Source: an uncultured Atribacterota bacterium
GTDB taxonomy: Bacteria > Atribacterota > Atribacteria > Atribacterales > Thermatribacteraceae
Assembly (NCBI GenBank): GCA_964570785.1
Contig: CAZMZG010000003.1
Location: 87-64,086, forward strand
Reading direction: 5' to 3'
DNA length: 64,000 nt
Positions within the stretch are counted from its first letter, which is position 1. Each line of letters starts with the position of its first letter. The notes below the pieces were generated by a model. It was not told the origin of the DNA, searched no databases, and was given only the letters and a program-made list of their open reading frames with translations. The position numbers and the translations under genes were made by a program. Below are positions 21,066-35,757 of this stretch, one piece after another.

Positions 21066-22052
21066 TTGGAATGCGATTTCCTGGTGATAGGTGCTGGACC
21101 AGCGGGTCTTTCTCTTGGAGAAAAGCTGGCTGGCTATGGGGAAGTCTTAATTCTCGAGAAGGATAACAAGATCGGAGGGCTTGCTGCTACCTTAGGTTGT
21201 AAGGCTCGTCAGAGCTGCCTTTATTGTGGAATCTGCAGGAACACAGACCTGATAAGACGAGTGGCCAAGTTCCAGTTTCCGATACTTTGCTCGAGAGATA
21301 TTTTGGGAGTAGAACGATCCGTTGAGGGGTTTCGAATTTTTACCAATCGTGAGGAGATAAAAACCAGATACGTGGCAATTGCTACTGGAGCTGAACCTTT
21401 TGATGCCAGGAAACTCCCTAATCTGGGTTACGGCAGATTACAGGGCGTTTTTACTGGATTGGATATTGAACAAGCCATAAACAGTGGCGAAATATTTCGA
21501 CTTCTTCCAGAACGAGGGAAAGTTGCTTTTGTACAGTGTGTTGGTTCGCGTAGTTTTAAAGAAAAACGAGGTTACTGTTCACAGATCTGTTGTCGCTATG
21601 CCTTGAGGGCTCTGGATTTTTTGAGTTACTTTTTGCCAAGCCTTGAGTTCAAGATGTTTTATATGGACCTCCAGATCTTTGGTCCCAAAAGCTGTTATCT
21701 TTGGGAAGTAGCTCGAAGCAAGGTGTTGTTGATAAGGTCCATACCCTTCCGAATAGAGGGAGAGAATGGAAGCTTAGAAGTTTTTTATGAAGATGAAAAT
21801 GGTCAGGCAGTCAAGGAAGAATTCGACCGGGTGGTCCTTTCCATAGGTCTGTCTTCCGGAAGCTCGACCAAAAACCTGGCTCGAGCTTTTTACCTTGAGC
21901 TCGATGACTGGGGATTTATTAAAAATTTTGGTGGAGGCAGGACCAGTAACCCGGGTGTTTTTGTGTGTGGCACGGCAGGAGGTCCCAAAGATGTGGAAAC
22001 CACTATTTTTGAGGCTTATCAGGTTGCAGAAAGTATACTTAACTTGAGATAG
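21066..22052 (+). CDS. Short HdrA-like flavoprotein (thioredoxin-reductase fold with HdrA Cys motif)
   Basis: GAGPAGLS dinucleotide motif, FVQCVGSRSFKEKRGYCSQICCRYA (HdrA CxGxR...CSxxCC signature), C-terminal GVFVCGTAGGPKD. Confidence 0.7.
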   Translation: MECDFLVIGAGPAGLSLGEKLAGYGEVLILEKDNKIGGLAATLGCKARQSCLYCGICRNTDLIRRVAKFQFPILCSRDILGVERSVEGFRIFTNREEIKTRYVAIATGAEPFDARKLPNLGYGRLQGVFTGLDIEQAINSGEIFRLLPERGKVAFVQCVGSRSFKEKRGYCSQICCRYALRALDFLSYFLPSLEFKMFYMDLQIFGPKSCYLWEVARSKVLLIRSIPFRIEGENGSLEVFYEDENGQAVKEEFDRVVLSIGLSSGSSTKNLARAFYLELDDWGFIKNFGGGRTSNPGVFVCGTAGGPKDVETTIFEAYQVAESILNLR

Positions 22053-22066
22053 CGGGATGATGGAAA

Positions 22067-23485
22067 TTGAAAAAAGTACTTGTATTATTCCGTCCTGAAT
22101 ATGCACGCGTGAAGCCCTTACTCGATGCCATCGGTGATTTTTCGAAAGAACTGGACCTGCAAGTTTACTCCTGCTCAGAGTGGTTAGACAAGGTAAATAA
22201 AAGCATGCAGGACTTTGAAAAAGTTTTTTTGTTGGTTGAAGATATTGAAGCCAATATCGAGTTGTTGTCTGAGTTTTGTGATTCAGTAGAAAACCTTGAA
22301 AAATTTAAGATTTTTGGGCTTCCCCCAGGTGTGGTTTCACCTCAACTGGTTGCCTGGTGGAAAAATTATTTCCGGGAGGAGCTTGTTTTAGGGCGTGATT
22401 CCCCGGTTAAAAGCGCTTTTTTAAAGCCGGAGAAGAGGGTGCTGGTCGTTGCTGAAGAAAATGAAAACACAGAGAAAGTAGAAAAAGCTCTTCAGAAAAA
22501 GAAAATACCTTTCTTTATTACCAGGAAAAAAGTGGCTATTTCCCGCGATGGAATTAATTTTAAAATTACTCACCATCCGGATGGCGAGCTGTGTTTTGGG
22601 GCAGTGATTTTCTTACCAAAAAAGCGAATACTCTCTTTCGGTTTCCCTCGAGAGGTTGAAGATACAGGGAGAGCGTTTTTTGTGGATGAATTATCACGGA
22701 AATATAACCATCGTAATTTCTGGAAAAAGAGTGTTGCCTTCCTGGTGCACGAGCTTGCTTCTCCCTTACAGTGGAGGAAGGCTCTCTGCTGGTCTGTCCG
22801 TATTCGCAGGGATTTTTGTTCGGAAGTTCTCTTTTTGTGTGAACAGGTTGGTGTTGCACTGGAAAACTCAGAACTGGCTTATCGAGAAGCAAGGCAAATC
22901 GGGGTTCGTTTTGAAAAAGTTCGATTTAAGAATTTTTCCTGCCAAGCCACTGAGAGCATGCAGAAAATCATCCTTAAGTTTGTTTCGGAAAAGGACCTTC
23001 GCGAAGCCTCATACCTGGTGGATTGGCTGGTTGTTGTGCCTTCTTTTGAGGTGCAGCCCATAGCGTTAGAGAAATACTTTATGATTGACCGTGGAAACCT
23101 GAGAGTTGCCCCGCTTCCCAATCCAGTCATCGATAAGTATTCTACCTGCTGGAGGGGTGTTTTTTGTGCTCCTCTTGAGGAGACTGGCAAGGAGTGGGAA
23201 CATTTGGTGCATTCGGTGATGCAGTATCTGGAGAAAGGGCAGTTGAAACTGAAAGAACGTGGTTCTGTTGATGAAGAGAAATGCGTACTTTGTTTGACCT
23301 GTTTGCGCTCCTGCCCCTTTGGGGCCGTAAAAATAGAGGGAGAGAACAAGCGCAAAAAAGCCATGATAGATTGGACTCTTTGTCAGGGATGTGGTATCTG
23401 CACTTCTCTGTGCCCTGCTGGTGCGATAAAGATTGTGGACTTCAAAAATGGTCAGTACCTTTTTGGTCCGCGTTTGTGGGGTTGA
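22067..23485 (+). CDS. Degenerate HdrA-like protein retaining only the C-terminal 2x[4Fe-4S] ferredoxin domain
   Basis: Aligns by eye with the second HdrA unit of 25921-30402, but GxGxxG is VVAEENE and the CVGSR/CSxxCC Cys residues are lost. The C-terminus keeps CVLCLTCLRSCP and CQGCGICTSLCP. Confidence 0.55.
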   Translation: MKKVLVLFRPEYARVKPLLDAIGDFSKELDLQVYSCSEWLDKVNKSMQDFEKVFLLVEDIEANIELLSEFCDSVENLEKFKIFGLPPGVVSPQLVAWWKNYFREELVLGRDSPVKSAFLKPEKRVLVVAEENENTEKVEKALQKKKIPFFITRKKVAISRDGINFKITHHPDGELCFGAVIFLPKKRILSFGFPREVEDTGRAFFVDELSRKYNHRNFWKKSVAFLVHELASPLQWRKALCWSVRIRRDFCSEVLFLCEQVGVALENSELAYREARQIGVRFEKVRFKNFSCQATESMQKIILKFVSEKDLREASYLVDWLVVVPSFEVQPIALEKYFMIDRGNLRVAPLPNPVIDKYSTCWRGVFCAPLEETGKEWEHLVHSVMQYLEKGQLKLKERGSVDEEKCVLCLTCLRSCPFGAVKIEGENKRKKAMIDWTLCQGCGICTSLCPAGAIKIVDFKNGQYLFGPRLWG

Positions 23486-23490
23486 TAGGC

Positions 23491-23877
23491 ATGAGACTGG
23501 TAGCTCTTGGTTGTGAAAGGAATGGTTATCCGGCGCTTTTACGCTATTTCCATAGGGTTTCTTTGCCGTCGGGATGGGAACTGAAGGAACTTTCTGTAAT
23601 TCCCTGTCTGGGGTTTATCAGAGAAGAGACAATTTTTTCTATTTTGGAAGAAAAAGCTGATGTTTTGTTGCTGGCTGGCTGTCCGCTGGATGCCTGTAAA
23701 AACGTTAAAGGTAGTGATGTTGGCTTGCGTAAAGTGACCAGGGTCAATGCTCTTCTTGAAGAAGCGCAAGTAAACAAGAAGGTGGCTCTGGCTTTAGTTA
23801 CTCCTGACAAGACCGGTGAAATAGAAAGAATGCTTACCGAGATCTTTGGCTTTTTTGGAGGTTCAAATAAACGATGA
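23491..23877 (+). CDS. Divergent MvhD/FlpD-like protein
   Basis: LVALGCERNG...VIPCLG...AGCPLDACKN is colinear with the canonical MvhD at 30399 (AFLCHWCSY...VPCSG...SGCHPGDCHY). ATG 23491 is 5 nt after the preceding stop. Confidence 0.55.
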   Translation: MRLVALGCERNGYPALLRYFHRVSLPSGWELKELSVIPCLGFIREETIFSILEEKADVLLLAGCPLDACKNVKGSDVGLRKVTRVNALLEEAQVNKKVALALVTPDKTGEIERMLTEIFGFFGGSNKR

Positions 23878-24524
23878 TTGTTGGTGAAAGAAAACCCCTC
23901 CCTGAGATAGTAAAACTTTTAGATGGTTTTAAAAAAGTGCTGGTTCTGGGTTGCGGAACCTGTGTTACTGTTTGTATGTCGGGTGGTGAAAAGGAAGCCA
24001 AAGAACTTGCCTCCCTGCTGAGGCTTAAAGGTTTTGATGCTTGGAGCGCCACGGTGGAGAGACAGTGCGAGCCAGAGTTTAACCAGCTAATTAGAGAAGA
24101 AGTTGAAAGAGCGGAAGCAATCCTTTCTCTGGCCTGCGGGATCGGAGTGCAGGCTTTAGCGGAACTTTATTTTCAAAAACCAGTCTATCCTGCTTTGAAC
24201 ACCACTTTTATGGGATTACCTGTTGAACAGGGTCTGTGGGAAGAGCGGTGTGCTGGTTGTGGCGACTGTATAGTCCATCTTTTTGGAGGTATCTGTCCGA
24301 TAGCTCGTTGTGCTAAGAGTCTTCTGAATGGTCCCTGTGGTGGTTCCAAAAATGGTAAGTGCGAAGTAAAGCCTGAACGTGATTGTGCTTGGCAACTTAT
24401 TTTTGAACGGCTCAAGGCCTTAGGCAAGGTCGAGCAACTTTTGCGGGTCGAGCCTCCCAAGGATTGGTCATATTCGCGTTACGGTGGGCATCGTAAAATG
24501 GTAAGGGAGGATGTCAGACTGTGA
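23874..24524 (+). CDS. metV: Methylene-THF reductase small Zn/Fe-S subunit MetV (MTHFR C-terminal-like domain)
   Basis: LLNGPCGGSKNGKCE hallmark and Cys-rich GCGTCVTVC / CAGCGDC segments. ATGA overlap with the upstream gene. Confidence 0.85.
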   Translation: MIVGERKPLPEIVKLLDGFKKVLVLGCGTCVTVCMSGGEKEAKELASLLRLKGFDAWSATVERQCEPEFNQLIREEVERAEAILSLACGIGVQALAELYFQKPVYPALNTTFMGLPVEQGLWEERCAGCGDCIVHLFGGICPIARCAKSLLNGPCGGSKNGKCEVKPERDCAWQLIFERLKALGKVEQLLRVEPPKDWSYSRYGGHRKMVREDVRL

Positions 24525-25447
24525 GCTGGCTACAAAAGGTGCTTGAGGAAGGAAACTTTGCGGTTACCTGTGAAATTGGCCCGCCAAAAAGCAGTGATTT
24601 TTCGGTGGTTACCAAAAAGTGCGATTGGGTAAGAAATTTTGTAGATGCGGTGAATGTGACCGACAATCAGACTGCTATTGTAAGGATGTCAAGCTTTGCC
24701 AGTTGTTTGATTGCTTCTCGCCAGAATGTTGAACCCATCATGCAGATGGTATGCAGAGATAGAAACCGCATTGCTTTGCAGAGTGACTTTTTGGGAGCCT
24801 GTGCTCTGGGTATAGAAAACTTTCTTTGCTTGAGTGGTGATCATCAGAGCATGGGTAATCATCCTCAGGCAAAAAATGTTTTTGATGTGGATTCAATACA
24901 GCTTTTGCAAATTTTTAAGAATATGCGCGATGAGAAAGTTTTTCAAAATGGCGAACCGATTAAAGGAGAGATCAAAGCTTTTCTTGGGGCAGGAGCAAAT
25001 CCCTTTGCTGATCCTCTGGAGTTGAGGGTGTTGCGACTGGCCAAGAAAATTGAGGCCGGAGCTCAGTTTATTCAGACGCAAGCGGTTTTTGATCTGGAAA
25101 GATTTGCAAGGTGGATGGAAGAGGTGAGGGAATGGGGCTTGCATCGCAAAGCTTTTATTATGGCTGGAGTGATTCCTGTTAAGTCTGTTCGTGCTCTGAA
25201 ATATATGAAGGAAGAAGTACCTGGACTTGAGATTCCTGACTATTTCTTGGAAAGGATGCGAAAAGCTAAGGATCCAAAGGAGGAAGGGGTACAGATTTGT
25301 ACAGAAATCATTAACGAAGTGCAAAAGATAAAAGGAGTAAGCGGTGTGCATATTATGGCTATCGCTTGGGAAAGTGTTGTACCCGAGATTGTCAAGAGAT
25401 GTGGTCTATACCCAAGACCGGTGAGAGAGGTAAAGAGAAATGAGTGA
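24521..25447 (+). CDS. metF: 5,10-methylenetetrahydrofolate reductase
   Basis: 308-aa MTHFR TIM-barrel sequence (VTCEIGPPK, VNVTDNQTAIVRMSS, FIQTQAVFD). GTGA overlap with metV. Confidence 0.9.
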   Translation: MSWLQKVLEEGNFAVTCEIGPPKSSDFSVVTKKCDWVRNFVDAVNVTDNQTAIVRMSSFASCLIASRQNVEPIMQMVCRDRNRIALQSDFLGACALGIENFLCLSGDHQSMGNHPQAKNVFDVDSIQLLQIFKNMRDEKVFQNGEPIKGEIKAFLGAGANPFADPLELRVLRLAKKIEAGAQFIQTQAVFDLERFARWMEEVREWGLHRKAFIMAGVIPVKSVRALKYMKEEVPGLEIPDYFLERMRKAKDPKEEGVQICTEIINEVQKIKGVSGVHIMAIAWESVVPEIVKRCGLYPRPVREVKRNE

Positions 25448-25934
25448 AGCGAAACTTCTTGATCACCAGTTTAAATATCGGATTGCTTCTCGGCCTGGAG
25501 GTGAGGGGCTGCTTGCTTGTTTTGCCTGTGGGGTTTGTACAGCAGCCTGCCCGGTGAGTGAAGTTGAAAAGGACTTTAACCCGCGTCGGATCATCCATCA
25601 AATTTTGCTTGGCGAGAGTGAAGAGCTTTTGCGGTCTGAACGCATGTGGTTGTGTGTGGGTTGCTATCGTTGCAGTGCTCACTGCCCACAGGATGTTGAG
25701 TTTACCAACCTTTTGAAAGTGTTGCGAGAACTTGCTGTAGAAGAAGGTACCGTTTCTGTGGAATGGAAAAAAGTAATTGATGAAGTCGACCGCAGAACTC
25801 AAGAATTACGACGCAAACTCATCAAGTATCTCTGGAATAAAGGAATTAATTCTCTGGGAGAGTTTGAGAGGTTTTATCAGAGAGAAATTGCAAAGCTGGA
25901 TTGGATTAAAGGGGATAGTGATGATGCACGGTAA
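25440..25934 (+). CDS. hdrC: HdrC-like 2x[4Fe-4S] protein
   Basis: CFACGVCTAACP and CVGCYRCSAHCP motifs in a 164-aa protein. The start overlaps the metF stop by 8 nt. Confidence 0.7.
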   Translation: MSEAKLLDHQFKYRIASRPGGEGLLACFACGVCTAACPVSEVEKDFNPRRIIHQILLGESEELLRSERMWLCVGCYRCSAHCPQDVEFTNLLKVLRELAVEEGTVSVEWKKVIDEVDRRTQELRRKLIKYLWNKGINSLGEFERFYQREIAKLDWIKGDSDDAR

Positions 25935-28900
25935 AACCCGAGGTAGCGTGATGGTGGTTGGAGGAGGAATAGCAGGCATCCAGAGCGCTCTGGATCTGGC
26001 CAATGCAGGTTTCAAGGTCTATTTGGTAGAGGATTCAACTGCTATTGGAGGTCTTATGGCGAGGCTGGATAAGACCTTTCCAACCAACGATTGCGCAATG
26101 TGCATTCTTTCTCCGAAGCTCGTTGAGTGTGGTAGACATCTGAATATAGAGGTTATTACCTGTGCCAGCTTGGAGTCTGTTGAGGGGGTACCTGGTGATT
26201 TCCGAGTCAAGGTCAGACGCAAACCCCGTTATGTTGATCCTTTGAAGTGCACTGGATGTGGTGATTGTGCAGAGGTTTGCCCGGTAAGCTTGTCTAACGA
26301 TTTTGAGGGCGGTTTGAGCAAGAAAAAGGCTATTTACCGTCTTTTCCCCCAAGCCTTTCCCAGTGCTTTTGCAATCGAAAAAAAAGGTTTACCTAACTGC
26401 CAGGCAGCCTGCCCCCTGGAACAAAAAGCTCAGGGTTATGTGGCTTTGATTCGGGAAGGAAAATTTGAAGAAGCCTTACAAACGGTACGTATGGATAATC
26501 CTTTTCCTGGAATTTGTGGGCGAGCCTGTCATCATCCTTGTATGGAAGATTGCCAGCGTGGACTTCTTGATGAACCAGTTGGTATTCCTTACTTGAAAAG
26601 ATTTTTAGCAGATTATGAAGTTAGAAATAACTTGAAGCCTGTTTTGGGCAAGCAAGAGGATAAAGGCAAGAAGGTAGCCATTATTGGAGCTGGTCCCAGT
26701 GGATTGAGTTGTGCTTATTTTCTGGTTAGAAAAGGTTATCAGGTTTGTGTTTATGAAGCCAAAGAGCAACCTGGAGGTATGATGAGTTACGGCATACCTC
26801 CTTATCGCTTGCCCCGTGATGTTGTGAAATATGAAATTGAGCTCCTGAAAGAACTGGGGATTAACTTTGTTTTTGGCAAGGCCTGGGGTAAAGATTTCGG
26901 AATTGATGATCTTTTCAGAGAGGGCTATGCCGCTTTATATGTTGCTTGCGGAGCCTGGCAGACTATAAAACTGGGCATCGAAGGCGAAGACTACCCCGAA
27001 GTTATGGATGGACTTGACTATCTGATCAAAGTTAACAGTTCTCAGGAAGTGCCTCAGGCCGAAGAGGTTGTAGTCATTGGTGGGGGAAACGTGGCTATTG
27101 ACTGTGCACGTTCCGCTTTGCGAAAGGGAGCGAAAAAGGTTTCTGTTTACTATAGGCGTTCCCGAGAAGAAATGCCGGCAAGAGCGGAGGAAGTAGAAGA
27201 AGCCCTGGAAGAGGGGGTTGAATTTTATTTTTGCGCGGCACCTAAGAGGTTTATAAAGCGAAATGGAAGAGTAATTCTGGAGTTCAACGCGGTTCGCTTA
27301 TGTGCTCCTGATGCTTCAGGAAGAAGGAAGCCAGAAATCGTGCCTGATGTGGTTTACGAAGTGGAAGCAGACCTTTTCCTGGTGGCAATAGGTCAGCGGG
27401 TGCGGATACCCGAAGGGAAATTAGAGCTTACCGGTTGGGGAACTATTAAGGTTAATGAGGAAATGCAGACTTCTTTCAAGGGTGTTTTTGCTGGAGGAGA
27501 TGCAGTGCTCGGTCCGGCTACGCTGGTTGAGGCCATTGCTCATGGAAAAAGAGCTGCTCGGGCTATTGATGCTTATCTTCAGGGAAAAGAAATTCGAGAT
27601 TTTGAAAAACGTAAGGCTCCTATTAACATACCCTGGCAGGAACCCAAGAAGCTTCGAGTTGGCTTAAAAAAACTGGATCCCCGGGAAAGGGTTTTAGGGT
27701 TTTATGAGGTGGTCAGAGGTTATACTGAAGAGGAAGCAAAGGAAGAAGCTCGACGTTGTCTTTCCTGTGGTGGCTGTTCGGAGTGTATGCAATGTGTTTC
27801 CGCCTGTCAGAGAGAGGCCATTTTGCATCAGGATTCTGAGGAGATCCTGGAGATCGCGGTTGGCGCGGTTATCTTTGCCAGCGGAACTTCAGTTATTGAC
27901 CCTGCCCAAAAATATAGGGAGTTTGGATATCGGAAGTTTGCTAATGTGATTACCAGTTTGGATTTTGAACGAATATTAAGTGCTTCTGGTCCCACTCAGG
28001 GCAAAGTGGTTCGCCCTTCAGATGACAAAGTGCCCCGCAAAATCGCTTTTGTACAGTGTGTAGGATCCAGAGATGTAAAGCGCGGCAAGCCTTATTGTTC
28101 TGCTGTTTGCTGTATGTATGCCATCAAAGAGGCTCTGGTGGCCAGGGAACACTTGCTTATTGAAGAAAGGGAGGAAGCGCTATGTGAGTGTGGAATAGAC
28201 ACTGTTGCCCATAGCTTTGGAAAAGACCCTGGTGCTGAGGGTTCGCAGCTGGATGTAGCTATTTTTATGATTGACATGCGTTCACCGGGAAAAGATTTTG
28301 AACGTTACTTTGAACGCGCCAAAGAAGAGGGTATTCGCTTTATAAGGAGCAAAGTGGGTAAAATAGAAGAACTGGACAATGGGGATTTGAGGGTTTACTT
28401 TGTTGATGAAAGTGGTTGCTCCCGGGAAGAGATTTTTGATTTGGTGATTCTTTCGGTGGGCTTTGAGGTCTCTTCTTATAATCGAGAAATGTTTGCTAAA
28501 GCAGGAGTAGCCCTGCAGGACAATGGATTTCCTTACACCGATGCACTTGACAAAACTTTGACTATGCAGGATGGTGTTTTTGTCTGTGGCACAGCTTCGG
28601 GACCCAAGGATATACCGGAAACAGTTGTTGAGGCCAGCGCAGCAAGTTGCAATGTTTCTTCCTTATTGGATGAGGCGCGTTTTTCAGAAATTACTTACAA
28701 GCAGTATCCTCCAGAGCGTAATGTAGAAATTGAGCCTTTAAAAATAGGTGTTTTTGTATGTCATTGCGGAATTAACATTGGGGGAGTAGTAAATGTAAAA
28801 GAAGTTGTTGACTGGGTTAAGGATTTGCCTGGAGTGATTTATGCTGAGGAAAATTTGTATACTTGCTCTCAGGATACTCAAGAACGAATTAAGCAGAAGA

Positions 28901-30402
28901 TCGTGGAGTTAGGAATTAACCGGGTGGTGGTGGCTTCCTGTTCTCCAAGGACACATGAACCTCTTTTTAGAGAAACCCTGCGCGAGGCAGGTCTTAATCC
29001 CTATCTTTTTGAGATGGCCAACATTCGGGATCAGTGTTCCTGGGTGCATCAACGAACACCTCAGATGGCCACTGAGAAAGCTAAGGAACTAGTTTCCATG
29101 GCAATTGCAAAAGTTTCTCTTAAGCGCCCCCTACAGCCAGCTTTCCTTTCAGTTGAAAAATCGGTTTTGATAATAGGCGGTGGCTTGAGCGGGATGACTG
29201 CGGCCCTGGAAGCTCGCAAACAGGGAGTCAAAGTTTTTCTGGTGGAGAAGGAACCTGAGCTGGGTGGTTATGCTTCTAAATTTGAGTGCTGGTTTACGCC
29301 TTTTGGAGAGGATATCACCGATAGAATTAATGAGTTGAAGAGCAAGATTTTGGAAGACCCTGGTATAGAGGTGTTTCTCAATTCTCGCGTTTCAGAAATT
29401 AATGGATTTGTAGGCAATTTCGAGTCGGTTATTTGTATTGGGGATGAGAAGAAAAAATTGAAGCACGGAGCCTTAATTGTTGCTACTGGAGGCATAGAGT
29501 ATCTCCCTCAGAAGGGAGAGTTTGGTTATGGTCTGGACCCGAGAATTGTGACTCAGTCCGAGCTCGAACATAGCTTCGAGAAGGTACCTTCTTTCAAACG
29601 GGTGGTAATGATTCAATGTGTGGGTTCCAGAAACGATGACCATCCCTGGTGTAGTAGGACTTGTTGTTCGAGAACTATACGCAATGCCCTGAGGCTAAAG
29701 GAAATAAACCCTGAAATTGAAGTTTTTGTCCTTTATAGAGACATTCGAACTTTTGGTTTCTTGGAAGAGCTGTATCGTAAGGCTCGTGAGAAGGGCATTA
29801 TTTTTGTGCGTTTTGAGGACAATAAACCTCCCCAGGTTGCCATAGATGATCAGGAAAAGATAATTGTAAGAGTATTTCTCTCTTCTTTGGGGGAAGAGGT
29901 TCTTTTTTCTCCAGACCTAGTGGTCCTTTCCACCGGCATCATGCCCCAAGATGGAAATCGAGAACTTGCCAAAAAGCTTAAAGTTCCTTTGAATCAGGAT
30001 GGTTTCTTCCTGGAGGCTCATGTTAAATTGCGACCAGTAGATTTTGCTACTGACGGTATTTTTGTTTGTGGTCTTGCTCATAGTCCAAAATTTGCCCATG
30101 AATGTGTGTTGCAGGCTAAGGCAGCTGTTTCTCGCATGATGACCGTGCTCAGCAAGGAAAAAATCACCGCAGAGGCCGAAGTAGCTATTGTGGATGAGCA
30201 AAAATGCACTGGTTGTGGAGATTGCGAGAGGCTGTGCCAGTTTGGAGCTGTGAAAGTGAATTCGGAAAGAAAAATTGCTGAAGTTAACTCGGCTCTTTGC
30301 AAGGGATGTGGTTTATGCAGTGCTTCCTGCAAAAGTGGCGCTATTAAAGTCCAAGGTTTCGCTCCTGAACAGATTATGGCGGAGGTGGAATATCTTTTAT
30401 GA
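25921..30402 (+). CDS. hdrA: Giant HdrA-GltD/NfnB-HdrA fusion flavoprotein (HdrL-like)
   Basis: 1493 aa from ATG 25921. Unit 1: GGGIAG and FPTNDCAMC. Inserted ferredoxin half: CTGCGDCAEVCP. GltD-like insert 26389-27740: IIGAGPSGL, VIGGGNVAIDCA, FAGGDA. Then CLSCGGCSEC...C and FVQCVGSRD...CSAVCC. Unit 2 from 28738: GVFVCHCGINIGG, CSPRTHEP, IIGGGLSG, IQCVGSRNDDHPWCSRTCC, and terminal CTGCGDCERLC / CKGCGLCSASC. Confidence 0.8.
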   Translation: MMHGKTRGSVMVVGGGIAGIQSALDLANAGFKVYLVEDSTAIGGLMARLDKTFPTNDCAMCILSPKLVECGRHLNIEVITCASLESVEGVPGDFRVKVRRKPRYVDPLKCTGCGDCAEVCPVSLSNDFEGGLSKKKAIYRLFPQAFPSAFAIEKKGLPNCQAACPLEQKAQGYVALIREGKFEEALQTVRMDNPFPGICGRACHHPCMEDCQRGLLDEPVGIPYLKRFLADYEVRNNLKPVLGKQEDKGKKVAIIGAGPSGLSCAYFLVRKGYQVCVYEAKEQPGGMMSYGIPPYRLPRDVVKYEIELLKELGINFVFGKAWGKDFGIDDLFREGYAALYVACGAWQTIKLGIEGEDYPEVMDGLDYLIKVNSSQEVPQAEEVVVIGGGNVAIDCARSALRKGAKKVSVYYRRSREEMPARAEEVEEALEEGVEFYFCAAPKRFIKRNGRVILEFNAVRLCAPDASGRRKPEIVPDVVYEVEADLFLVAIGQRVRIPEGKLELTGWGTIKVNEEMQTSFKGVFAGGDAVLGPATLVEAIAHGKRAARAIDAYLQGKEIRDFEKRKAPINIPWQEPKKLRVGLKKLDPRERVLGFYEVVRGYTEEEAKEEARRCLSCGGCSECMQCVSACQREAILHQDSEEILEIAVGAVIFASGTSVIDPAQKYREFGYRKFANVITSLDFERILSASGPTQGKVVRPSDDKVPRKIAFVQCVGSRDVKRGKPYCSAVCCMYAIKEALVAREHLLIEEREEALCECGIDTVAHSFGKDPGAEGSQLDVAIFMIDMRSPGKDFERYFERAKEEGIRFIRSKVGKIEELDNGDLRVYFVDESGCSREEIFDLVILSVGFEVSSYNREMFAKAGVALQDNGFPYTDALDKTLTMQDGVFVCGTASGPKDIPETVVEASAASCNVSSLLDEARFSEITYKQYPPERNVEIEPLKIGVFVCHCGINIGGVVNVKEVVDWVKDLPGVIYAEENLYTCSQDTQERIKQKIVELGINRVVVASCSPRTHEPLFRETLREAGLNPYLFEMANIRDQCSWVHQRTPQMATEKAKELVSMAIAKVSLKRPLQPAFLSVEKSVLIIGGGLSGMTAALEARKQGVKVFLVEKEPELGGYASKFECWFTPFGEDITDRINELKSKILEDPGIEVFLNSRVSEINGFVGNFESVICIGDEKKKLKHGALIVATGGIEYLPQKGEFGYGLDPRIVTQSELEHSFEKVPSFKRVVMIQCVGSRNDDHPWCSRTCCSRTIRNALRLKEINPEIEVFVLYRDIRTFGFLEELYRKAREKGIIFVRFEDNKPPQVAIDDQEKIIVRVFLSSLGEEVLFSPDLVVLSTGIMPQDGNRELAKKLKVPLNQDGFFLEAHVKLRPVDFATDGIFVCGLAHSPKFAHECVLQAKAAVSRMMTVLSKEKITAEAEVAIVDEQKCTGCGDCERLCQFGAVKVNSERKIAEVNSALCKGCGLCSASCKSGAIKVQGFAPEQIMAEVEYLL

Positions 30403-30821
30403 GTGAAGAATGGGAACCTAAAATAGTGGCCTTTCTTTGTCACTGGTGCAGCTACGCAGGTGCTGACCTGGCGGGAGTTAGTCGTCTCCAGTATCCTCCA
30501 AACATCAGAGTTATCAGAGTTCCCTGTTCGGGAGCAGTTAATCCTCTTTACATTCTTAAAGCTTTACGGGAAGGAGCGGATGGAGTGCTGGTTTCGGGTT
30601 GCCATCCGGGGGACTGTCACTATATTGGGGGCAATTATTTTGCGCGCAGAAAATTTCTGGTTTTGAAGGAAATACTCAAATGGGTTGGTGTTGAAGAGGA
30701 GAGAGTGCAGTTTTCGTGGGTTTCAGCTTCTGAAGGCCAAAAATTTTCTAAGGTAGTGGAGAAAGTAGTTGAAGGAGTCAAAAGGGTTGGTCCTGCATCC
30801 AGGCTGGTAAAGGAGTTTTGA
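30399..30821 (+). CDS. mvhD: MvhD/FlpD-type [2Fe-2S] electron-transfer subunit
   Basis: IVAFLCHWCSYAGADLAG, RVPCSG and SGCHPGDCHY motifs. ATGA overlap with the hdrA fusion. Confidence 0.85.
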   Translation: MSEEWEPKIVAFLCHWCSYAGADLAGVSRLQYPPNIRVIRVPCSGAVNPLYILKALREGADGVLVSGCHPGDCHYIGGNYFARRKFLVLKEILKWVGVEEERVQFSWVSASEGQKFSKVVEKVVEGVKRVGPASRLVKEF

Positions 30822-30824: not shown

Positions 30825-31769
30825 ATGTTTTCTGGGGAACTGCGAGAAATTGCCAGAAAGTTGCTTTTGGAGAAAGAAGTGGACATTATTATCGGTTACC
30901 AGTGGGGTTCTCTTCCTTTCCGAACTTCGCCTTTATTTATTGAAGAACCTCGGGATGTTGAAAAGATGATCTTTAATCCGCTATGTTCAGTTAATCTTTC
31001 CAGGTACCTTCAGCGCTATAGAAATAGCGGTAAAAAACTGGGTATCGTTGCTAAGGGATGCGACGCGCGATCGTTGGTAGTTCTTCTTCTTGAGGGACAA
31101 TTTGAGCGTGAACATCTTAAAATAATCGGTGTGCCATGCAAGGGCGTCTTGAACTGGAAGAAAATTCGGGATTCCTTTGAGACCTTTCCTCGGGATGTGG
31201 TTTTCTGGGGGGAAGATTTTTTTGTTGTCAACGGAAAGAAGTATCATTATCGGGATTTTATGGAGAACACCTGCCTCCGCTGTAAATATCCCAACCCCCC
31301 TCTCTATGACTTTTTGGTTGGAGAACCCCTCGAAGAGAGTAATTGGGAAAAGTTTGGTCTGGACTATGTCCAGGATATGGATTCGAAAACCGCCGAGGAA
31401 CGTTTTGAAGAGCTTTACAGGGAGCTCAGTTCCTGTATTCGCTGTTATGCCTGCCGCGAGGCATGTCCTCTCTGTTACTGTAAAGAGTGTTTTGTGGAAA
31501 GTACCCGTCCTCGCTGGACAACTCCCTGTCCAACTTTCTCGGACAACTTTGTTTTTCATATAGGTCGCGCCATGCATCTTGCTGGGCGCTGTGTAGAATG
31601 TGGAGCTTGTGAGCGGTCTTGCCCGGTGGGGATCCCCATTGCACTTTTAACTATTAAAATAGAAAACATTGTTAAGGAACATTTTGGGTTTGAAGCAGGA
31701 CTGAGTCTTGAAGAAGAAGCTCCTTTGCTTACCTACAGGGAAAATGACCCTGACGAATTTATAAAGTGA
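30825..31769 (+). CDS. Fe-S protein, FlxC-like
   Basis: CIRCYACREACPLCYC and CVECGACERSCP cluster motifs in 314 aa. Positioned between mvhD and the next two module genes. Confidence 0.55.
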   Translation: MFSGELREIARKLLLEKEVDIIIGYQWGSLPFRTSPLFIEEPRDVEKMIFNPLCSVNLSRYLQRYRNSGKKLGIVAKGCDARSLVVLLLEGQFEREHLKIIGVPCKGVLNWKKIRDSFETFPRDVVFWGEDFFVVNGKKYHYRDFMENTCLRCKYPNPPLYDFLVGEPLEESNWEKFGLDYVQDMDSKTAEERFEELYRELSSCIRCYACREACPLCYCKECFVESTRPRWTTPCPTFSDNFVFHIGRAMHLAGRCVECGACERSCPVGIPIALLTIKIENIVKEHFGFEAGLSLEEEAPLLTYRENDPDEFIK

Positions 31770-31782: not shown

Positions 31783-32784
31783 ATGAAAAAGGGTTACTGG
31801 GAGAAGGAAAGATTTAGAGAGTGGGTTGCTGCTGAAAAGGGTAGGATCTGGCTTACAGAGAGACTGAAGAATAAATATCCTGACCTTTTTATAGATCTGG
31901 ACAGAGAGTTGCGAACTGTGAAAGAAGCTTTCTATCCCCAGTGGCGTAAGGTTTGTCGCTTCTTGTGGGATAAAAAAAGGTGGTTGGTGGAAGACTTACC
32001 GGACGAGAAGAAGCCGGTGCCTTCTCTTGTTTTTGCTTTGCCCTGTGAGGCAAGGGCGGTTCTGGATGTTTTAGATAAGATTTTTATTAAGAAAGAGCCC
32101 TCGGATGGTTTTTACCTTTCGCGTCGTGCCTCCTCCTTAGTAGTGATTGTAGCTTGTCTTTTTCCTGAAGAGGTCTGTTTCTGCAATTGGGTGGGTGGCG
32201 GGCCTTTTTGGCATACTGATAATTCTCCCTTCCTGGTACCCTTGGAAAAAGGGTTGTATCTGGAAGATCCTGTTGGTGTTTTTCCGCCAACTTATGAAGA
32301 AGCAAGTGTTGAGCTTAACGAAAAAGTTGAAAAACTAAAGGAACAGGCTGAACTCTCTCTGGGAGAGCCATTTACTATAGACAGAGATTTTCCAAAAAAG
32401 CTTTATGATAATTTCTACAGTGAAAGCTGGGAGAAACTTGCTCAAAAGTGTCTTAATTGCGGAGCATGCACCTTTTTGTGCCCTACCTGTTACTGTTTTG
32501 ATCTTGTGGTGGATGGGGCTTTGAGGGGTTATCAGCTTTGCACCTGGGATAGCTGTATGTTTGCCAAATTCACTCTCCATGCTTCAGGTCATAACCCGCG
32601 CCCCGGCTATACAGAGAGAGTCCGTCAGAGGGTTCTTCATAAGTTTTCCTATTTCCCGATGCGCGAAGGTAGCTTTGGATGTGTTGGTTGTGGAGCTTGT
32701 ATAACTGCCTGTCCGGTTAACTGGGACATTAGGGAAGTGATAAAAGAGATGTTCCAAGAGGTGGGTGACAAAAAAGGTGAGTGA
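31783..32784 (+). CDS. Fe-S protein, FlxB / sulfhydrogenase-beta / AsrA-like
   Basis: CLNCGACTFLCPTCYC and CVGCGACITACP motifs in 333 aa. Confidence 0.6.
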   Translation: MKKGYWEKERFREWVAAEKGRIWLTERLKNKYPDLFIDLDRELRTVKEAFYPQWRKVCRFLWDKKRWLVEDLPDEKKPVPSLVFALPCEARAVLDVLDKIFIKKEPSDGFYLSRRASSLVVIVACLFPEEVCFCNWVGGGPFWHTDNSPFLVPLEKGLYLEDPVGVFPPTYEEASVELNEKVEKLKEQAELSLGEPFTIDRDFPKKLYDNFYSESWEKLAQKCLNCGACTFLCPTCYCFDLVVDGALRGYQLCTWDSCMFAKFTLHASGHNPRPGYTERVRQRVLHKFSYFPMREGSFGCVGCGACITACPVNWDIREVIKEMFQEVGDKKGE

Positions 32785-33616
32785 AGCTAAAAATATTTAT
32801 CTTCCCCGGCTTTGTGTTATAAAAGAAGTGATTCCAGAAACCCCCGATATAAAAACTTTTCGGGTGGAAATTCCTGATGATTTTCACTTTGATTATATTC
32901 CGGGTCAGTTTGCAGAAGTTTTCCTTCCCGGCAAGGGAGAAGCTCCTTTCTCGATAGCTTCTTCGCCCACTCAAAGAGGGATTATCGAGTTTAGTATCAA
33001 AAGGGTAGGATTAGTTACTGAAGCTATTCACCAGCAGGTTCCAGGAAGTCAGATAGGTATTCGAGGTCCTTATGGAAATGGCTTTCCCCTTAAAGAGCTG
33101 GAAGGAAAGGATCTGCTTTTTGTTGGAGGTGGTATCGGCCTGGCTCCTTTGCGATCGCTCATCAACTATGTTCTTGACTCAGACCATCGTCCTCACTTCG
33201 GAAGGGTTATCATTCTTTATGGAGCCAGGACCCCTCAAGATTTGGTTTTTAAGTGGGAACTCGAAAGGTGGTCAAAAAGAGATGATGTGGAAGTTTTGAT
33301 TACTGTGGATAAGGGAGACCATACCTGGAGCGGCAAGGTGGGCTTGGTACCCCAGGTGCTAAAAGAGTGTATTGCAATAGATGATAGCGAGCCACCCACT
33401 TCCATTGTTTGCGGACCACCAATTATGATCAAATTCACTATTAAGGCGTTGCTTGAGATGGGTTGTTGTCCTCACGACATCATCACCACTTTGGAGATGA
33501 GAATGAAATGTGGCCTGGGAAAGTGTGGTCGTTGTAATATTGGTCCTTATTACGTATGTAAAGATGGCCCGGTTTTTAGATATGACCTTCTCAGCACACT
33601 GCCAGAGGAATACTGA
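32765..33616 (+). CDS. FAD/NAD(P)H-binding oxidoreductase with C-terminal [2Fe-2S] (FlxA / HydG / AsrB / PyrK-like)
   Basis: Ferredoxin-reductase-type segments (GQFAEV, APFSI, GGGIGLAPL) and C-terminal CGLGKCGRCNIGPYYVCKDGPVF. The start is uncertain: GTG 32765 or GTG 32777. Confidence 0.8.
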   Translation: MTKKVSEAKNIYLPRLCVIKEVIPETPDIKTFRVEIPDDFHFDYIPGQFAEVFLPGKGEAPFSIASSPTQRGIIEFSIKRVGLVTEAIHQQVPGSQIGIRGPYGNGFPLKELEGKDLLFVGGGIGLAPLRSLINYVLDSDHRPHFGRVIILYGARTPQDLVFKWELERWSKRDDVEVLITVDKGDHTWSGKVGLVPQVLKECIAIDDSEPPTSIVCGPPIMIKFTIKALLEMGCCPHDIITTLEMRMKCGLGKCGRCNIGPYYVCKDGPVFRYDLLSTLPEEY

Positions 33617-33625
33617 GGTCAAGCT

Positions 33626-34960
33626 ATGTTGTATCAGCAAGCTCTACGTTACCTGTATGGTTTGATTAACTATGAGAAAGTCGGCTTTTCCTATTCTGAT
33701 TTAAAACTCGAGCGCATGCAGGAGTTGATGGATCGTCTGGGGAACCCTCATTGCAAGGTACCAACTATCCTGATTGCTGGAACGAAAGGCAAAGGTTCTA
33801 CCTCCTACTTTCTGCACAGGTTATTTTCAGCCTATGGCTTTAGTTGTGGTCTTTATTCCAAACCCCATCTTGTGACCTATCGGGAGCGTATAAGAGTTAA
33901 CGATACCTTTATTGGTGAGGATGAGTTAGGATTGCTGATAAATCGCATTCAGCCCATTGTTGAGGAAATGGGTCGCAGATCTCCTTTGGGCAAACCCACT
34001 TATTTTGAGGTTTCAGTAGCTCTTGCTTTTCTTTACTTTCTCGAAAGAAAGGTTGATTTAGCTGTTTTTGAAGTTGGTTTGGGTGGGCGTCTTGATGCCA
34101 CCAATGTGTCTTGCCCGAGCTTAACTGCTATAACCCCAATTAGTATGGATCATATGGATGTTTTGGGAAATTCCGTAAAGGAGATTGCCAGAGAAAAAGC
34201 CGGCATTATTCGCCCTGGAGTAACTACTGTGTTGGCTCTGCAAAACCCAGAAGCCAGAAGAGTAGTCCTGGAGGTTGCATATTTGCGAAACTCTCCGGTG
34301 GTCCAGTTTGAGAAAGAGTGTCTCTTTGAGATTTTATCAAGAAGTTCCTCGGGTTCCCGGTTATGGTGGGAGGTAAAGGATTGGGGAAAAGGGGAGTCTT
34401 TGCTTCCTGTGCTGGGTGACCATCAGGTTTCTAATTTTTTGACGGCTCTGCTTATATTGCGGGAATGGGGTCTGGGTTTTCGAAGAGATGCGGTGGAAAG
34501 TGCACTTTCAGGAGTGAGCTGGCCGGGAAGAATCCAGATAATTTCGACTAACCCTTTGGTAGTTTTCGATGTGGCCCATAACCGCGATTCTTTTTTGGCT
34601 TTGCTTGACACTCTCCGCAGTTACCTGGGAATTGAAAAGAGTGTTTTTCTTCTAGGTTTTGTAAAGGGGAAAGACGTAGGTTCTATTGCAGAAGTTCTGG
34701 GTAGTTTTGCGGAGGCAATAGTTATTACCCAACCTTACACTCCTCGAGCTTTGGCGCCTGGTGATTTGATTTCCCTATTTGAAACAGTGGCTCCTGCTCT
34801 GGTTGTGAAAGACCCAGCAGTGGCTTACACTTTTGCAAGGGACCAGGCTGCAAAGAGAGGATTGCCCCTGGTTGTGGTTGGTTCTTTTTACCTGGCTCGG
34901 CTCTTTGGCGAAGAGATTAATCGGATTTTTAATATTAGTGAGGAGGTTGAATTATGCTGA
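33626..34960 (+). CDS. folC: Folylpolyglutamate synthase / dihydrofolate synthase
   Basis: IAGTKGKGST P-loop and Mur-ligase-like organisation; 444 aa. Confidence 0.9.
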   Translation: MLYQQALRYLYGLINYEKVGFSYSDLKLERMQELMDRLGNPHCKVPTILIAGTKGKGSTSYFLHRLFSAYGFSCGLYSKPHLVTYRERIRVNDTFIGEDELGLLINRIQPIVEEMGRRSPLGKPTYFEVSVALAFLYFLERKVDLAVFEVGLGGRLDATNVSCPSLTAITPISMDHMDVLGNSVKEIAREKAGIIRPGVTTVLALQNPEARRVVLEVAYLRNSPVVQFEKECLFEILSRSSSGSRLWWEVKDWGKGESLLPVLGDHQVSNFLTALLILREWGLGFRRDAVESALSGVSWPGRIQIISTNPLVVFDVAHNRDSFLALLDTLRSYLGIEKSVFLLGFVKGKDVGSIAEVLGSFAEAIVITQPYTPRALAPGDLISLFETVAPALVVKDPAVAYTFARDQAAKRGLPLVVVGSFYLARLFGEEINRIFNISEEVELC

Positions 34961-35757
34961 TTATCATCGGAGAACGTATCAATGCTACACGTAAGCCTAT
35001 AAGGGAGGCTTTGGAAAGAAAAGATGTGCAGTTTTTTGTTGAGGAGGCCAAAAAACAGGAACAGGCAGGAGCGCACTTTATAGATGTTAATGCTGGTACC
35101 GATGCCACTTCAGAAATTGAAAACCTACCCTGGTTGGTAGAAATAATTCAGGATGAGGTGGAAGTGCCTCTCTGCTTTGACTCTGCTAATGAGAAAGCGT
35201 TAGAGAGAGCTTTAAAAGTTTATAAAAAGAAAGGGTTGATTATTAACTCTTTTACGGCTGAGGAAGAAAAGATAAAAGCACTGCTACCCCTTGCTAAAGA
35301 GTGGAATGCTTACATAGTTGGTCTGGCCATGGGTGAAGGGGGAATACCCCAGACTGGTGAGGAGCGCATGAAATTGGTAGATAAATTGCTGGAAGCTGTG
35401 CATCTCTATGGCATCCCTGAGGAACGGCTTTTTATCGATCCTCTGGTTATTCCCGTTGGCACTGATTCTACTCAGGGGAAACTTTTTCTGGAAACTTTAA
35501 AGAGTATTAAAGATAAGTTTCCTGAAGTGAAGACGGTTTGTGGTTTGTCCAATGTTTCTTTTGGTTTACCAAACAGGAGGCTTCTAAACAGAACTTTTGC
35601 AGTGCTTTGTCTTGCTTTTGGCCTGGATGCAGCAATTATAGACCCCTTGGATAAGGAATTGATGGCTTCCATTTATGCTACCGAAGTGCTTTTGGGAATT
35701 GATGAGTTTTGTATGGGGTATCTTAACGCTTTCAGAGAGGGCAAGCTTAACCTTTAA
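34954..35757 (+). CDS. acsE: Methyl-THF:corrinoid methyltransferase (pterin-binding TIM barrel, AcsE/MeTr type)
   Basis: Colinear with Moorella AcsE as I recall it (MLIIGERIN..., FIDVNAG, LCFDS, INS, IDPLV, GLSNVSFG, NRTF). Overlaps the folC stop by 7 nt. Confidence 0.8.
   Translation: MLIIIGERINATRKPIREALERKDVQFFVEEAKKQEQAGAHFIDVNAGTDATSEIENLPWLVEIIQDEVEVPLCFDSANEKALERALKVYKKKGLIINSFTAEEEKIKALLPLAKEWNAYIVGLAMGEGGIPQTGEERMKLVDKLLEAVHLYGIPEERLFIDPLVIPVGTDSTQGKLFLETLKSIKDKFPEVKTVCGLSNVSFGLPNRRLLNRTFAVLCLAFGLDAAIIDPLDKELMASIYATEVLLGIDEFCMGYLNAFREGKLNL

Follow-up and report, generated by a model that had tools for sequence, protein, structure and literature searches.

Hdr-type methylene-tetrahydrofolate reductases

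The MetFV-HdrCBA-MvhD complex of Moorella thermoacetica (Mock et al., 2014, cited via PMC5861303 and PMC9430772) oxidises NADH and reduces methylene-tetrahydrofolate (methylene-THF) only via dyes, and which second electron acceptor it uses has been an open question since 2014; the Sporomusa enzyme could not readily be purified in complexed form (PMC5861303; PMC9430772). Here we describe a block of genes in a 64,000-nucleotide stretch of DNA from an uncultured Atribacterota bacterium of the family Thermatribacteraceae (contig CAZMZG010000003.1 of assembly GCA_964570785.1, positions 87 to 64,086; called the window below, with position 1 as its first letter), in which metV and metF stand together with hdrC, a gene for a large HdrA fusion, mvhD and three Flx-like genes, and in which hdrB is missing. 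We propose that these genes specify a MetVF reductase of Hdr type ("type IV", as in Moorella) that is naturally without HdrB, is linked to NAD(P)H and ferredoxin by electron bifurcation or confurcation, and has MetVF as its only high-potential acceptor, a reading that we hold to be rather more probable than improbable.

The HdrA subunit of M. thermoacetica, a protein of 1487 amino acids and 162.8 kDa that oxidises NADH, has a thioredoxin-reductase-like (TrxR-like) domain interrupted by a GltD domain; it carries 8 [4Fe-4S] clusters, 3 FAD, one NAD(P)H site and the residues E696/K750 and E1204/K1246 (PMC9430772). The Glu/Lys pair taken as the signature of flavin-based bifurcation lies near the flavin and is E356/K409 in the numbering of M. 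thermolithotrophicus (PMC9430772). The name HdrL was given in 2009 to a heterodisulfide-reductase/glutamate-synthase fusion of Desulfobacterium autotrophicum (PMC2702500). Clusters of metVF, hdrA and mvhD without HdrB were also known before the present one: they have been reported from type I Acetothermia, in which hdrBC lies elsewhere (PMC9586279), and from Candidatus Syntrophoarchaeum (PMC9012536). In methanogens the donor arm leading from FdhB or ElpB via MvhD or ElpC to the FAD of HdrA is structurally established (PMC12350162).

Gene order of the locus

The formate-tetrahydrofolate ligase gene fhs is followed by 13 genes on the same, forward strand, between 21066 and 35757:

19299..20993, forward: fhs, formate-tetrahydrofolate ligase (Pfam FTHFS, 886 bits)
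21066..22052, forward: A1, compact sHdrA-like flavoprotein (PDB 6tjr_A, E = 1.3e-30, full length)
22067..23485, forward: A2, degenerate HdrA or "pseudo-HdrA" (Pfam Fer4 only, residues 400-455)
23482..23877, forward: D1, divergent MvhD-like protein (Pfam FlpD, E = 1.5e-11; PDB 5odc_D at only E = 0.05)
23874..24524, forward: MetV (Pfam DUF5981/MTHFR_C, PF12225, 130 bits)
24521..25447, forward: MetF, catalytic subunit of methylene-THF reductase (Pfam MTHFR, PF02219, 140 bits, full length)
25440..25934, forward: HdrC-like 2x[4Fe-4S] protein, 164 amino acids (TIGR03290 as top match, 83 bits against a cut-off of 160)
25951..30402, forward: HdrL or Moorella-type HdrA, 1483 amino acids, 164.2 kDa (PDB alignments and motifs)
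30399..30821, forward: canonical MvhD, the FlxD-equivalent [2Fe-2S] connector (Pfam FlpD, 184 bits, full length)
30825..31769, forward: FlxC-like Fe-S protein of FdhB/ElpB/FrhB fold, 314 amino acids (profile search, AlphaFold2 model and Foldseek)
31783..32784, forward: FlxB-like poly-Fe-S protein resembling sulfhydrogenase-I beta and AsrA, 333 amino acids (Pfam Fer4_22, 101 bits)
32765..33616, forward: FlxA-like protein resembling sulfhydrogenase-I gamma and AsrB, 283 amino acids (FAD_binding_6, NAD_binding_1 and DHODB_Fe-S_bind domains)
33626..34960, forward: FolC, folylpolyglutamate synthase (TIGR01499, 331 bits against a cut-off of 163)
34954..35757, forward: pterin-binding methyl-THF:corrinoid methyltransferase (NF005719, 331 bits against a cut-off of 259)

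The start codon of fhs is an ATG preceded by AAGGAGG, and 72 nt separate this gene from A1. Across the 13 genes the junctions lie between -20 and +16 nt, four of them being stop-start overlaps of 4 nt; read from A1 onwards they are +14, -4 (TTGA at 23482), -4 (ATGA at 23874), -4 between the adjacent metV and metF (GTGA at 24521), -8 between metF and hdrC (25440), +16, -4 (ATGA at 30399), +3, +13, -20 (32765), +9 and -7 (34954). The fusion could also start at 25921, with a -14 overlap, but gene calls on near-identical contigs place its start at 25951. The original prediction, made from the letters alone, had counted 14 open reading frames (ORFs) in this block; 13 were found, matching the 13 products that it had itself named. 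Its coordinates and overlaps otherwise agreed with the recomputed junctions, and its domain calls with Pfam, NCBIfam, PDB and fold searches.

The complete 2.19-Mb genome CP184673.1 (locus L007) has the same genes in the same order with 86-97% amino-acid identity, and so, with regard to genes and order, do two more distant Atribacteria metagenome-assembled genomes (MAGs; L010 and L012). Since the order is kept in these three and the ratio of nonsynonymous to synonymous substitution rates (dN/dS, against L007) is 0.05-0.15 in all 16 genes, fhs and the two ORFs behind the block included, the block cannot be put down to an accidental succession of ORFs.

The MetF protein finds its best NCBIfam match in the MTHFR half of PRK08645. 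MetV has no relative in the PDB at E ≤ 0.01, and no MetV-containing structure is present in the PDB copy searched. For the HdrC-like protein, in which both CxxCxxCxxxC motifs are intact, the top five PDB matches are all HdrC, with 5odc_C first (E = 3e-18).

Absence of HdrB

The CCG domain (PF02754), of which an HdrB has two, was not found in Pfam scans of 52 long ORFs of the window, which are nearly all those of at least 150 amino acids not shadowed by a gene, out to position 61040. Two hidden Markov models, one built from 18 HdrB-type and the other from 9 HmcF/DsrK-type proteins of related loci (for each set a single seed was compared with NCBIfam and came out as HdrB-type and HmcF/DsrK-type, respectively), gave no match at E ≤ 10 in any six-frame ORF of the window of at least 40 amino acids. 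It had been argued from this DNA that no long ORF contains a CCG tripeptide. That is not so, as PurL (42895-45111) has one outside of any CCG domain, which makes the tripeptide uninformative as a criterion; the absence of HdrB for which it was invoked stands.

In the annotation of 24 class-Atribacteria genomes, hdrB (K03389/COG2048) is 0 in all 24, among them Thermatribacter velox B11, to which the organism of the window is more closely related than to any other cultured one (PMC11227167, Table S6), and hdrD is 0 in 23, T. velox B11 again being one of them; for hdrA and hdrC most entries are 1 (PMC11227167). An hdrB gene elsewhere in the genome, which had been named beforehand as the finding that would speak against the prediction, thus did not turn up in the relatives (Table S6 of PMC11227167). 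Several genomes of the JS1 lineage do carry hdrB (PMC11227167).

We surveyed related loci in one genome per species and kept 80; 37 of these are flanked on either side by 6 kb or more. The fusion and metVF occur together in 21 of the 37; a CCG protein lies within 8 kb in 13 of these, hdrC only is present in 4, and neither in the remaining 4. The 13 loci, together with the separate hdrBC of type I Acetothermia (PMC9586279) and the fact that the present genome was examined over 64 kb only, are what a canonical Moorella-type MetFV-HdrCBA-MvhD enzyme would have in its favour, the HdrB of which is encoded elsewhere and joins in trans. We regard such an enzyme as very unlikely here: T. velox B11, which shares 85% identity in the fusion with the window, scores 0 for both hdrB and hdrD, in the class hdrB is 0 in 24/24 and hdrD in 23/24, and at four independent loci hdrC was kept in the operon without hdrB.

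The HdrA fusion

In PDB searches, residues 1-145, 608-732, 923-1080 and 1243-1481 of the fusion align to methanogen HdrA and residues 147-616 to NfnB, StnA and GltD. It opens with a TrxR domain whose ferredoxin domain houses an NfnB/GltD-like insert; then come the N-terminal domain of HdrA, another TrxR domain and, at the C-terminus, a 2x[4Fe-4S] domain. GxGxxG motifs lie at residues 4, 246, 377 and 1076, and all 43 Cys positions checked are conserved. These motifs show three predicted FAD sites, one predicted NAD(P)H site, which lies in the NfnB/GltD-like insert, and cysteines for about 8 putative [4Fe-4S] clusters.

At the published positions of the bifurcation signature the fusion has E673 and K726, both invariant in 15 homologues. 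In the second TrxR domain E1206 is found with R1244; 13 of the 15 aligned sequences have Lys there. The two with Arg at residue 1244 are this organism and the relative nearest to it. The Glu/Lys signature of flavin-based bifurcating HdrA is to be taken as predictive only.

The HdrA-GltD-HdrA fusion is no new element, because its architecture is that of the published Moorella HdrA and HdrL, a match made to the published description; a pattern scan turned it up in 600 species genomes or more. Its identity is 92% to the fusion of CP184673.1, 85% to WP_369018826.1 from T. velox and 61-64% to those of Caldatribacterium and other Atribacteria MAGs, the Caldatribacterium ones giving 61-62%. A longer form of 1650-1700 amino acids, about 170 of them extra, is common in metagenomes.

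The donor arm

The canonical MvhD has VhuD and the C-terminus of HdrA2 as its top NCBIfam matches. Directly 3' of mvhD stands the gene for the 314-amino-acid FlxC-like protein, which is poorly annotated by Pfam. A profile search matches it to FdhB in the complex of formate dehydrogenase and Hdr (Fdh-Hdr; 7bkb_E, 7.7e-43) and to the FdhB-like chain in Elp-Hdr (8rvu_E), and its AlphaFold2 model, with a predicted local distance difference test score (pLDDT) of 87, finds 7bkb_E (template-modelling score, TM, 0.76), 8rvu_E (TM 0.74) and then FrhB in a Foldseek search. We predict that it serves as an adaptor to MvhD and HdrA. In place of FdhA or ElpA there follows a beta/gamma pair of NAD(P)H type. 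The top NCBIfam matches of the FlxB-like protein are AsrA, ShyB and HydB, and its PDB match is 9nez_B (E = 7e-24); the FlxA-like protein, for which 32777 is an alternative start, aligns over its full length to 9nez_C of Pyrococcus sulfhydrogenase I (E = 8.5e-61) and is predicted to bind FAD, NAD(P)H and a [2Fe-2S] cluster.

The three proteins had been called a Flx/HydBG-like trio. A trio of Fe-S and flavin proteins of NAD(P)H type it is, but one composed of an FdhB/ElpB-like adaptor and homologues of sulfhydrogenase I beta and gamma, the subunits that bind NADP(H) in that enzyme. An assignment of the trio to the NfnA type was rejected, as FlxA matches sulfhydrogenase gamma and AsrB with 233 and 219 bits against 70 for NfnA-type models.

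The A1-A2-D1 set

Upstream of metV the block contains a second, partly degenerate Hdr/Mvh set. The closest PDB match of A1, 6tjr_A, is the HdrA-like subunit of Hyphomicrobium denitrificans, and the next matches are the TrxR-like domains of methanogen HdrA. A1 has GAGPAG at residue 9 and has kept the CVGSR...CSxxCC motif, from which it is predicted to bind FAD and one [4Fe-4S] cluster. A2, of which residues 269-463 align to residues 435-632 of HdrA2 in NCBIfam, has lost both GxGxxG and the CVGSR...CC motif, as seen in an alignment with HdrA-like relatives, and has kept the C-terminal 2x[4Fe-4S] domain. Its AlphaFold2 model (pLDDT 74) finds methanogen HdrA chains best in Foldseek, at E = 1e-18 and a low TM of about 0.4. 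The designation pseudo-HdrA, given to it from the letters, was therefore well chosen: flavin and cluster motifs are lost, and HdrA is the best fold match. That A2 is a pseudogene was considered and rejected, since its frame is intact, the protein is conserved and dN/dS is 0.13. In D1 (dN/dS 0.14) the four Cys are at 11/42/67/72, as compared with 14 or 17/43/68/73 in canonical MvhD.

Distribution of the design

The fusion adjoins flxB and flxA in 13 of the 37 flanked loci. The Flx trio is present at 5 of the 21 loci that combine the fusion with metVF, and 4 of these 5 are exactly the four at which hdrC stands alone; the fifth (L036) has an hdrCB fusion. Two of the four are from Atribacteria, one (L050) is from a spirochaete MAG of the termite gut and one (L056) from a MAG of Bacillota. 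In L050 the order is folD, a gene of the URO-D family, the methyltransferase gene, A1, A2, metV, metF, hdrC, the fusion, mvhD and flxCBA; in L056 it is A1, A2, metV, metF, hdrC, the fusion, mvhD, flxCBA, a focA-like gene, fhs, fchA and folD. Given these neighbours, the design recurs in three phyla and always in a formate and folate context. No description of a design with HdrC only, Flx and MetVF was found in the literature searched. In a neighbour-joining tree of 84 fusion proteins the Atribacteria form a clade separate from the pair L050 and L056; as the tree rests on 414 columns and has no bootstrap, we draw no conclusion on a single or multiple origin.

Each half of the block also occurs by itself. 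A non-degenerate module of A1-like protein, full HdrA, MvhD, MetV and MetF is found in the Desulfobacterota MAGs L024 and L060; it resembles the Sporomusa-type HdrA described in PMC9430772. Fusion, MvhD, FlxC, FlxB and FlxA stand alone in the Desulfobacterales-type MAGs L033, L037, L058 and L068, where no same-strand hdrB, hdrC or metVF was found in the flanks fetched; in L068 an hdrCB pair lies upstream on the opposite strand. Being without a high-potential acceptor subunit, this standalone module may by itself work as a transhydrogenase like Nfn.

Because each half is found alone in other genomes, the main rival to our proposal is that the operon encodes two enzymes: a Sporomusa-like reductase of A1, A2, D1 and MetVF, possibly ferredoxin-dependent and non-bifurcating, and an Nfn-like NADH/NADPH/ferredoxin transhydrogenase of HdrC, HdrL, MvhD and FlxCBA, with the NfnB-like insert and an NfnA-like FlxA as its two pyridine-nucleotide sites. 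Besides the separate occurrence of the modules in the six MAGs just named, it can draw on the alignment of the insert to NfnB and to StnA of the Sporomusa transhydrogenase, on the membership of FlxA in the NfnA/PyrK fold family, and on the identity of the window's fusion to other fusions, which is slightly higher to Flx-associated ones (48-50%) than to most MetVF-associated ones (44-47%). We nevertheless consider it unlikely. The hdrC gene sits between metF and the fusion and overlaps metF by its 8 nt, it is hard to see what HdrC would do in a transhydrogenase, the two modules lie side by side at all four hdrC-only loci of the three phyla, and the bit scores of FlxA given above favour sulfhydrogenase gamma and AsrB over NfnA.

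Some further arrangements were seen in the survey. Archaeal MAGs, among them that of a Thermoplasmatota archaeon (L087), hold the fusion in two copies, accompanied by hdrC-hdrB and the Flx trio. In the Desulfobacterota MAGs L024 and L054 sets of fusion, mvhD, metV and metF are duplicated or mirrored, and immediately upstream of the fusion several Desulfobacterota loci have an additional metF-like gene that is divergent in sequence (31-36% identity).

Probable function in one-carbon metabolism

Upstream of fhs two further genes bear on the fate of the methyl group and of formate:

18550..19191, forward: methyltransferase-cognate corrinoid protein, 213 amino acids (B12-binding_2 and B12-binding; TIGR02370, 215.8 bits against a cut-off of 215.3)
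17638..18468, reverse: FocA-like formate/nitrite channel (Pfam Form_Nir_trans, 215 bits)

The corrinoid protein resembles MtgC, MtbC and the B12 domain of MetH; the MtgC models of NCBIfam are its top matches, below cut-off. The FocA-like gene, transcribed divergently from the corrinoid gene, likewise has the NCBIfam models FocA and fnt as top matches below cut-off. Since a focA-like gene adjoins fhs here and in the Bacillota locus L056, import or export of formate may be part of the physiology of the unit.

The methyltransferase had been named AcsE and the block a Wood-Ljungdahl operon; neither name can be kept. The protein passes only the generic methyl-THF:corrinoid model, failing the NCBI AcsE cut-off (CODH_ACS_meth, 168.8 bits against 370), and it matches the pterin domain of MetH with 124 bits. 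Neither folD nor genes of CO dehydrogenase/acetyl-CoA synthase (CODH/ACS) were found in the 64-kb window. Class Atribacteria is without fdhAB, and nearly all Atribacterota are without CODH/ACS (PMC11227167); for acsA-E and fdhA, T. velox and almost every genome of the class score 0 (PMC11227167). In Caldatribacterium the incorporation of 13C-formate and 13C-bicarbonate was close to nil (PMC13408713). A working Wood-Ljungdahl pathway for acetogenesis or CO2 fixation, as proposed for Atribacteria in earlier metagenomic papers (PMC7542362), is for this lineage largely refuted and as an explanation of the block hardly credible, although fhs, metVF and an AcsE-like methyltransferase are clustered. 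In L050 and L056, where the design sits with folD and, in L056, fchA, the hosts are possibly true acetogens. As the host lineage lacks CODH/ACS and formate dehydrogenase, the block is not the methyl branch of a working pathway, and for the same reason the enzyme would serve not acetogenesis but a folate one-carbon hub (GlyA, Fhs, FolC and FocA) in a host that would be a heat-loving, Thermatribacter-like sugar fermenter. The cultured T. velox B11 is thermophilic, ferments sugars and has 45.9% G+C (PMC11227167); the G+C content of the window is about 45%.

Methyl-THF would pass its methyl group via the pterin-binding methyltransferase to the corrinoid protein. The window encodes a pterin-binding and a B12-binding protein, and the two look rather like a split methionine synthase or a methyl-transfer pair. 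In a JS1 MAG a MetH activation domain, metF, a methyltransferase and a corrinoid protein are clustered and expressed (PMC11227167, Table S8); the same MAG has a separate homocysteine S-methyltransferase beside S-adenosylmethionine (SAM) synthetase (PMC11227167). This relative shows all four modules of a split cobalamin-dependent MetH, those for binding pterin, B12 and homocysteine and that for activation. Methyl-THF is most likely used for the synthesis of methionine and SAM by an enzyme of the split-MetH kind.

The flow could also go the other way: a methylated substrate would deliver its methyl group via the corrinoid protein to THF, MetVF would oxidise it, Fhs would yield formate and ATP, and FocA would export the formate, with confurcation of electrons from reduced ferredoxin pulling the oxidation of methyl-THF towards NAD(P)+. 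By type the corrinoid protein belongs with the methyltransferase-cognate MtgC/MtbC/MtaC proteins, TIGR02370 lying just at cut-off, focA and fhs are neighbours both here and in L056, and in L050 a URO-D-family gene adjoins the methyltransferase gene and folD. The URO-D family includes corrinoid methyltransferases of O-demethylases. A large bifurcating machine would moreover suit a catabolic flux better than an anabolic one, and the lineage is without formate dehydrogenase and, in Caldatribacterium, without formate uptake (PMC11227167; PMC13408713). Even so we rate this oxidative route as quite improbable: no methyltransferase of the MttB, MtaB or URO-D type was found in the 64-kb window or in the Atribacteria loci, according to their descriptions the cultured relatives ferment sugars, and the methyltransferase/corrinoid pair of the JS1 relative clusters with a MetH activation domain.

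Proposed electron path

In the HdrB-free reductase that we propose, NAD(P)H would enter at the FlxA-like protein and its electrons would pass via the FlxB-like and the FlxC-like protein to MvhD; entry at the GltD-like insert may also occur. A flavin of HdrL would split the electron pair, the high-potential electron going via HdrC and MetV to MetF and methylene-THF (E0′ about −200 mV) and the low-potential electron to ferredoxin. The whole reaction could run in reverse. Because MetVF would be the only high-potential acceptor, no disulfide substrate would be needed. Wagner et al. are said to have found in 2017 that HdrC wires HdrA to its acceptor subunit in methanogens. That the locus combines the MetFV-Hdr and the Flx designs, as had been claimed, is correct in so far as both modules lie in one coupled block without HdrB; their wiring into a single complex stays a proposal, and it is from the gene content that we infer both the electron path and the replacement of HdrB by MetFV.

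Several points weigh against the proposal. Complex formation, electron path, direction and nucleotide specificity are all inferred from sequence. One operon need not be one complex, because the A1-HdrA-MvhD-MetVF module and the fusion-MvhD-FlxCBA module each occur separately (in L024 and L060, and in L033, L037, L058 and L068, respectively). The signature position of the second TrxR domain is R1244 and not Lys. The absence of hdrB beyond the window comes from the KO/COG annotation of relatives by others, not from this MAG. The window yielded neither a homocysteine-binding domain nor a domain for MetH activation, and a flavoprotein machine of 11 genes looks out of proportion to a small anabolic flux of methyl groups.

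The proposal can be extended to a possible, though on balance doubtful, stronger form, in which the operon and its spirochaete and Bacillota counterparts encode a single HdrB-free multi-flavin supercomplex with methylene-THF as sole high-potential and ferredoxin as low-potential acceptor, two pyridine-nucleotide sites (in the FlxA-like protein and in the NfnB-like insert) and Nfn-like and Hdr-like bifurcation in tandem. If this were true, the locus would represent a natural minimal system, Hdr-type methylene-THF reductases would need no disulfide co-substrate, the "unknown second acceptor" of the Moorella enzyme would be identified, and the machinery would be at work in a non-acetogenic fermenter.

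T. velox and two species of Caldatribacterium are in pure culture (PMC11227167; PMC13408713), and the enzyme is therefore directly testable.

Operon limits and neighbouring genes

All genes between 19299 and 37487 are on the forward strand, including two conserved ORFs behind the methyltransferase gene:

35805-36665, forward: ORF of 286 amino acids, no Pfam or NCBIfam match
36672-37487, forward: ORF of 271 amino acids, no Pfam or NCBIfam match

The first begins with a hydrophobic segment at its N-terminus; their dN/dS is 0.15 and 0.05, respectively. Both hold the same position at 4 Atribacteria loci with 44-96% identity and were not found at the loci of other phyla, the spirochaete and Bacillota versions included. 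No Rfam family, whether a THF, SAM or cobalamin riboswitch or another leader RNA, matched at gathering score in the whole window, and an E-value search of 15900-21300 gave matches at chance level only. Promoter and terminator scans of 18400-38000 returned counts at the level of shuffled sequence (22 versus 23.7 and 28 versus 21.7), and the scan yields nothing firm on the limits of the operon. The sole well-placed hairpin, at 19205-19222 and 3' of the corrinoid gene, is terminator-like.

On the reverse strand HydF, the maturation GTPase of [FeFe]-hydrogenase, and a lyase of the aspartase/fumarase family (37488-40462) converge on the end of the operon, a pair also present in L007 and L010. Farther downstream lies a V/A-type ATPase operon (48117-56349, forward) with subunits I, c/K, C/AC39, A, B and D, the c/K subunit having 161 amino acids and two ATP-synt_C matches, followed by a metallophosphoesterase gene and rpoB. 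Housekeeping genes upstream are those of FtsZ (6054-7367, forward), preceded by a ParA/MinD-like ATPase, and of a PolX-type DNA polymerase (10603-12375, forward) with pol-beta thumb and fingers and a PHP domain.

Comparison with known systems

The variant narrows the possibilities for Hdr-type methylene-THF reductases, as HdrB has been discarded in a whole bacterial class and the operon brings its own NAD(P)H-donor arm; if the enzyme is bifurcating, methylene-THF must be the high-potential acceptor and a disulfide is not involved. It also corrects a recurrent over-reading of Atribacterota fhs-metF clusters as a Wood-Ljungdahl pathway.

With the MetFV-HdrCBA-MvhD complex of M. thermoacetica (Mock et al., 2014, via PMC5861303 and PMC9430772) the locus has MetF, MetV, HdrC and MvhD in common. 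The two HdrA proteins are of the same build (about 1485 amino acids, 163-164 kDa, the second HdrA without the inserted ferredoxin domain), and their signature Glu and Lys positions agree within a few residues. They differ in gene order, which is hdrC-B-A-mvhD-metV-metF in Moorella and metV-metF-hdrC-hdrA-mvhD, with no HdrB, in the window, in the three Flx-like and three degenerate Hdr/Mvh-like genes that the window has in addition, and in the host, which here lacks CODH/ACS. In HdrCBA-MvhD-MetVF of Sporomusa ovata (PMC9430772) HdrA is a single protein of 942 amino acids made up of an extra TrxR-like domain and the HdrA core. A1 and A2, with D1, resemble this layout split into separate genes, but A2 has lost its flavin and cluster motifs and HdrB is missing. 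The sHdrA of H. denitrificans (PDB 6TJR) resembles A1 alone, which aligns to it over the full length (E = 1e-30).

FlxABCD-HdrABC of Desulfovibrio vulgaris (Ramos et al., 2015; for Hdr/Flox in syntrophs see PMC5947623) shares with the locus an FlxA-type subunit, two Fe-S subunits, the MvhD-type FlxD, HdrA and HdrC, the Flx assignment being one at the level of family, fold and synteny. Clusters of the order fusion-mvhD-flxC-hdrC-hdrB-flxB-flxA are common in Syntrophales and Smithella MAGs. The window differs from the D. vulgaris system in its HdrL-type HdrA, in the presence of MetVF in the operon and in having HdrC without HdrB, and because HdrB is lacking it would offer no site for DsrC or another disulfide.

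In the Fdh-Hdr-Fmd and Elp-Hdr complexes of methanogens (7BKB and 8RVU; PMC12350162) the donor arm is mirrored by the FdhB/ElpB-fold gene that follows mvhD in the window, which has no FdhA or ElpA, is not expected to involve F420, has an NAD(P)H-donor module instead and would have MetVF in place of the HdrB acceptor side. The HdrL of D. autotrophicum (PMC2702500) and the HdrA-NfnB fusions HdrA9-11 of ANME-1 archaea (PMC9012536) are likewise fusions of HdrA with the small subunit of glutamate synthase, and mvhD always comes directly after them; their partners are DsrABC, Fdh or unknown, whereas in the window the fusion belongs to an operon with HdrC only, Flx and MetVF. Every building block of the locus is already known, and what it would add to these systems is their combination in an HdrB-free, Flx-armed operon for a putative Hdr-type MetVF reductase.

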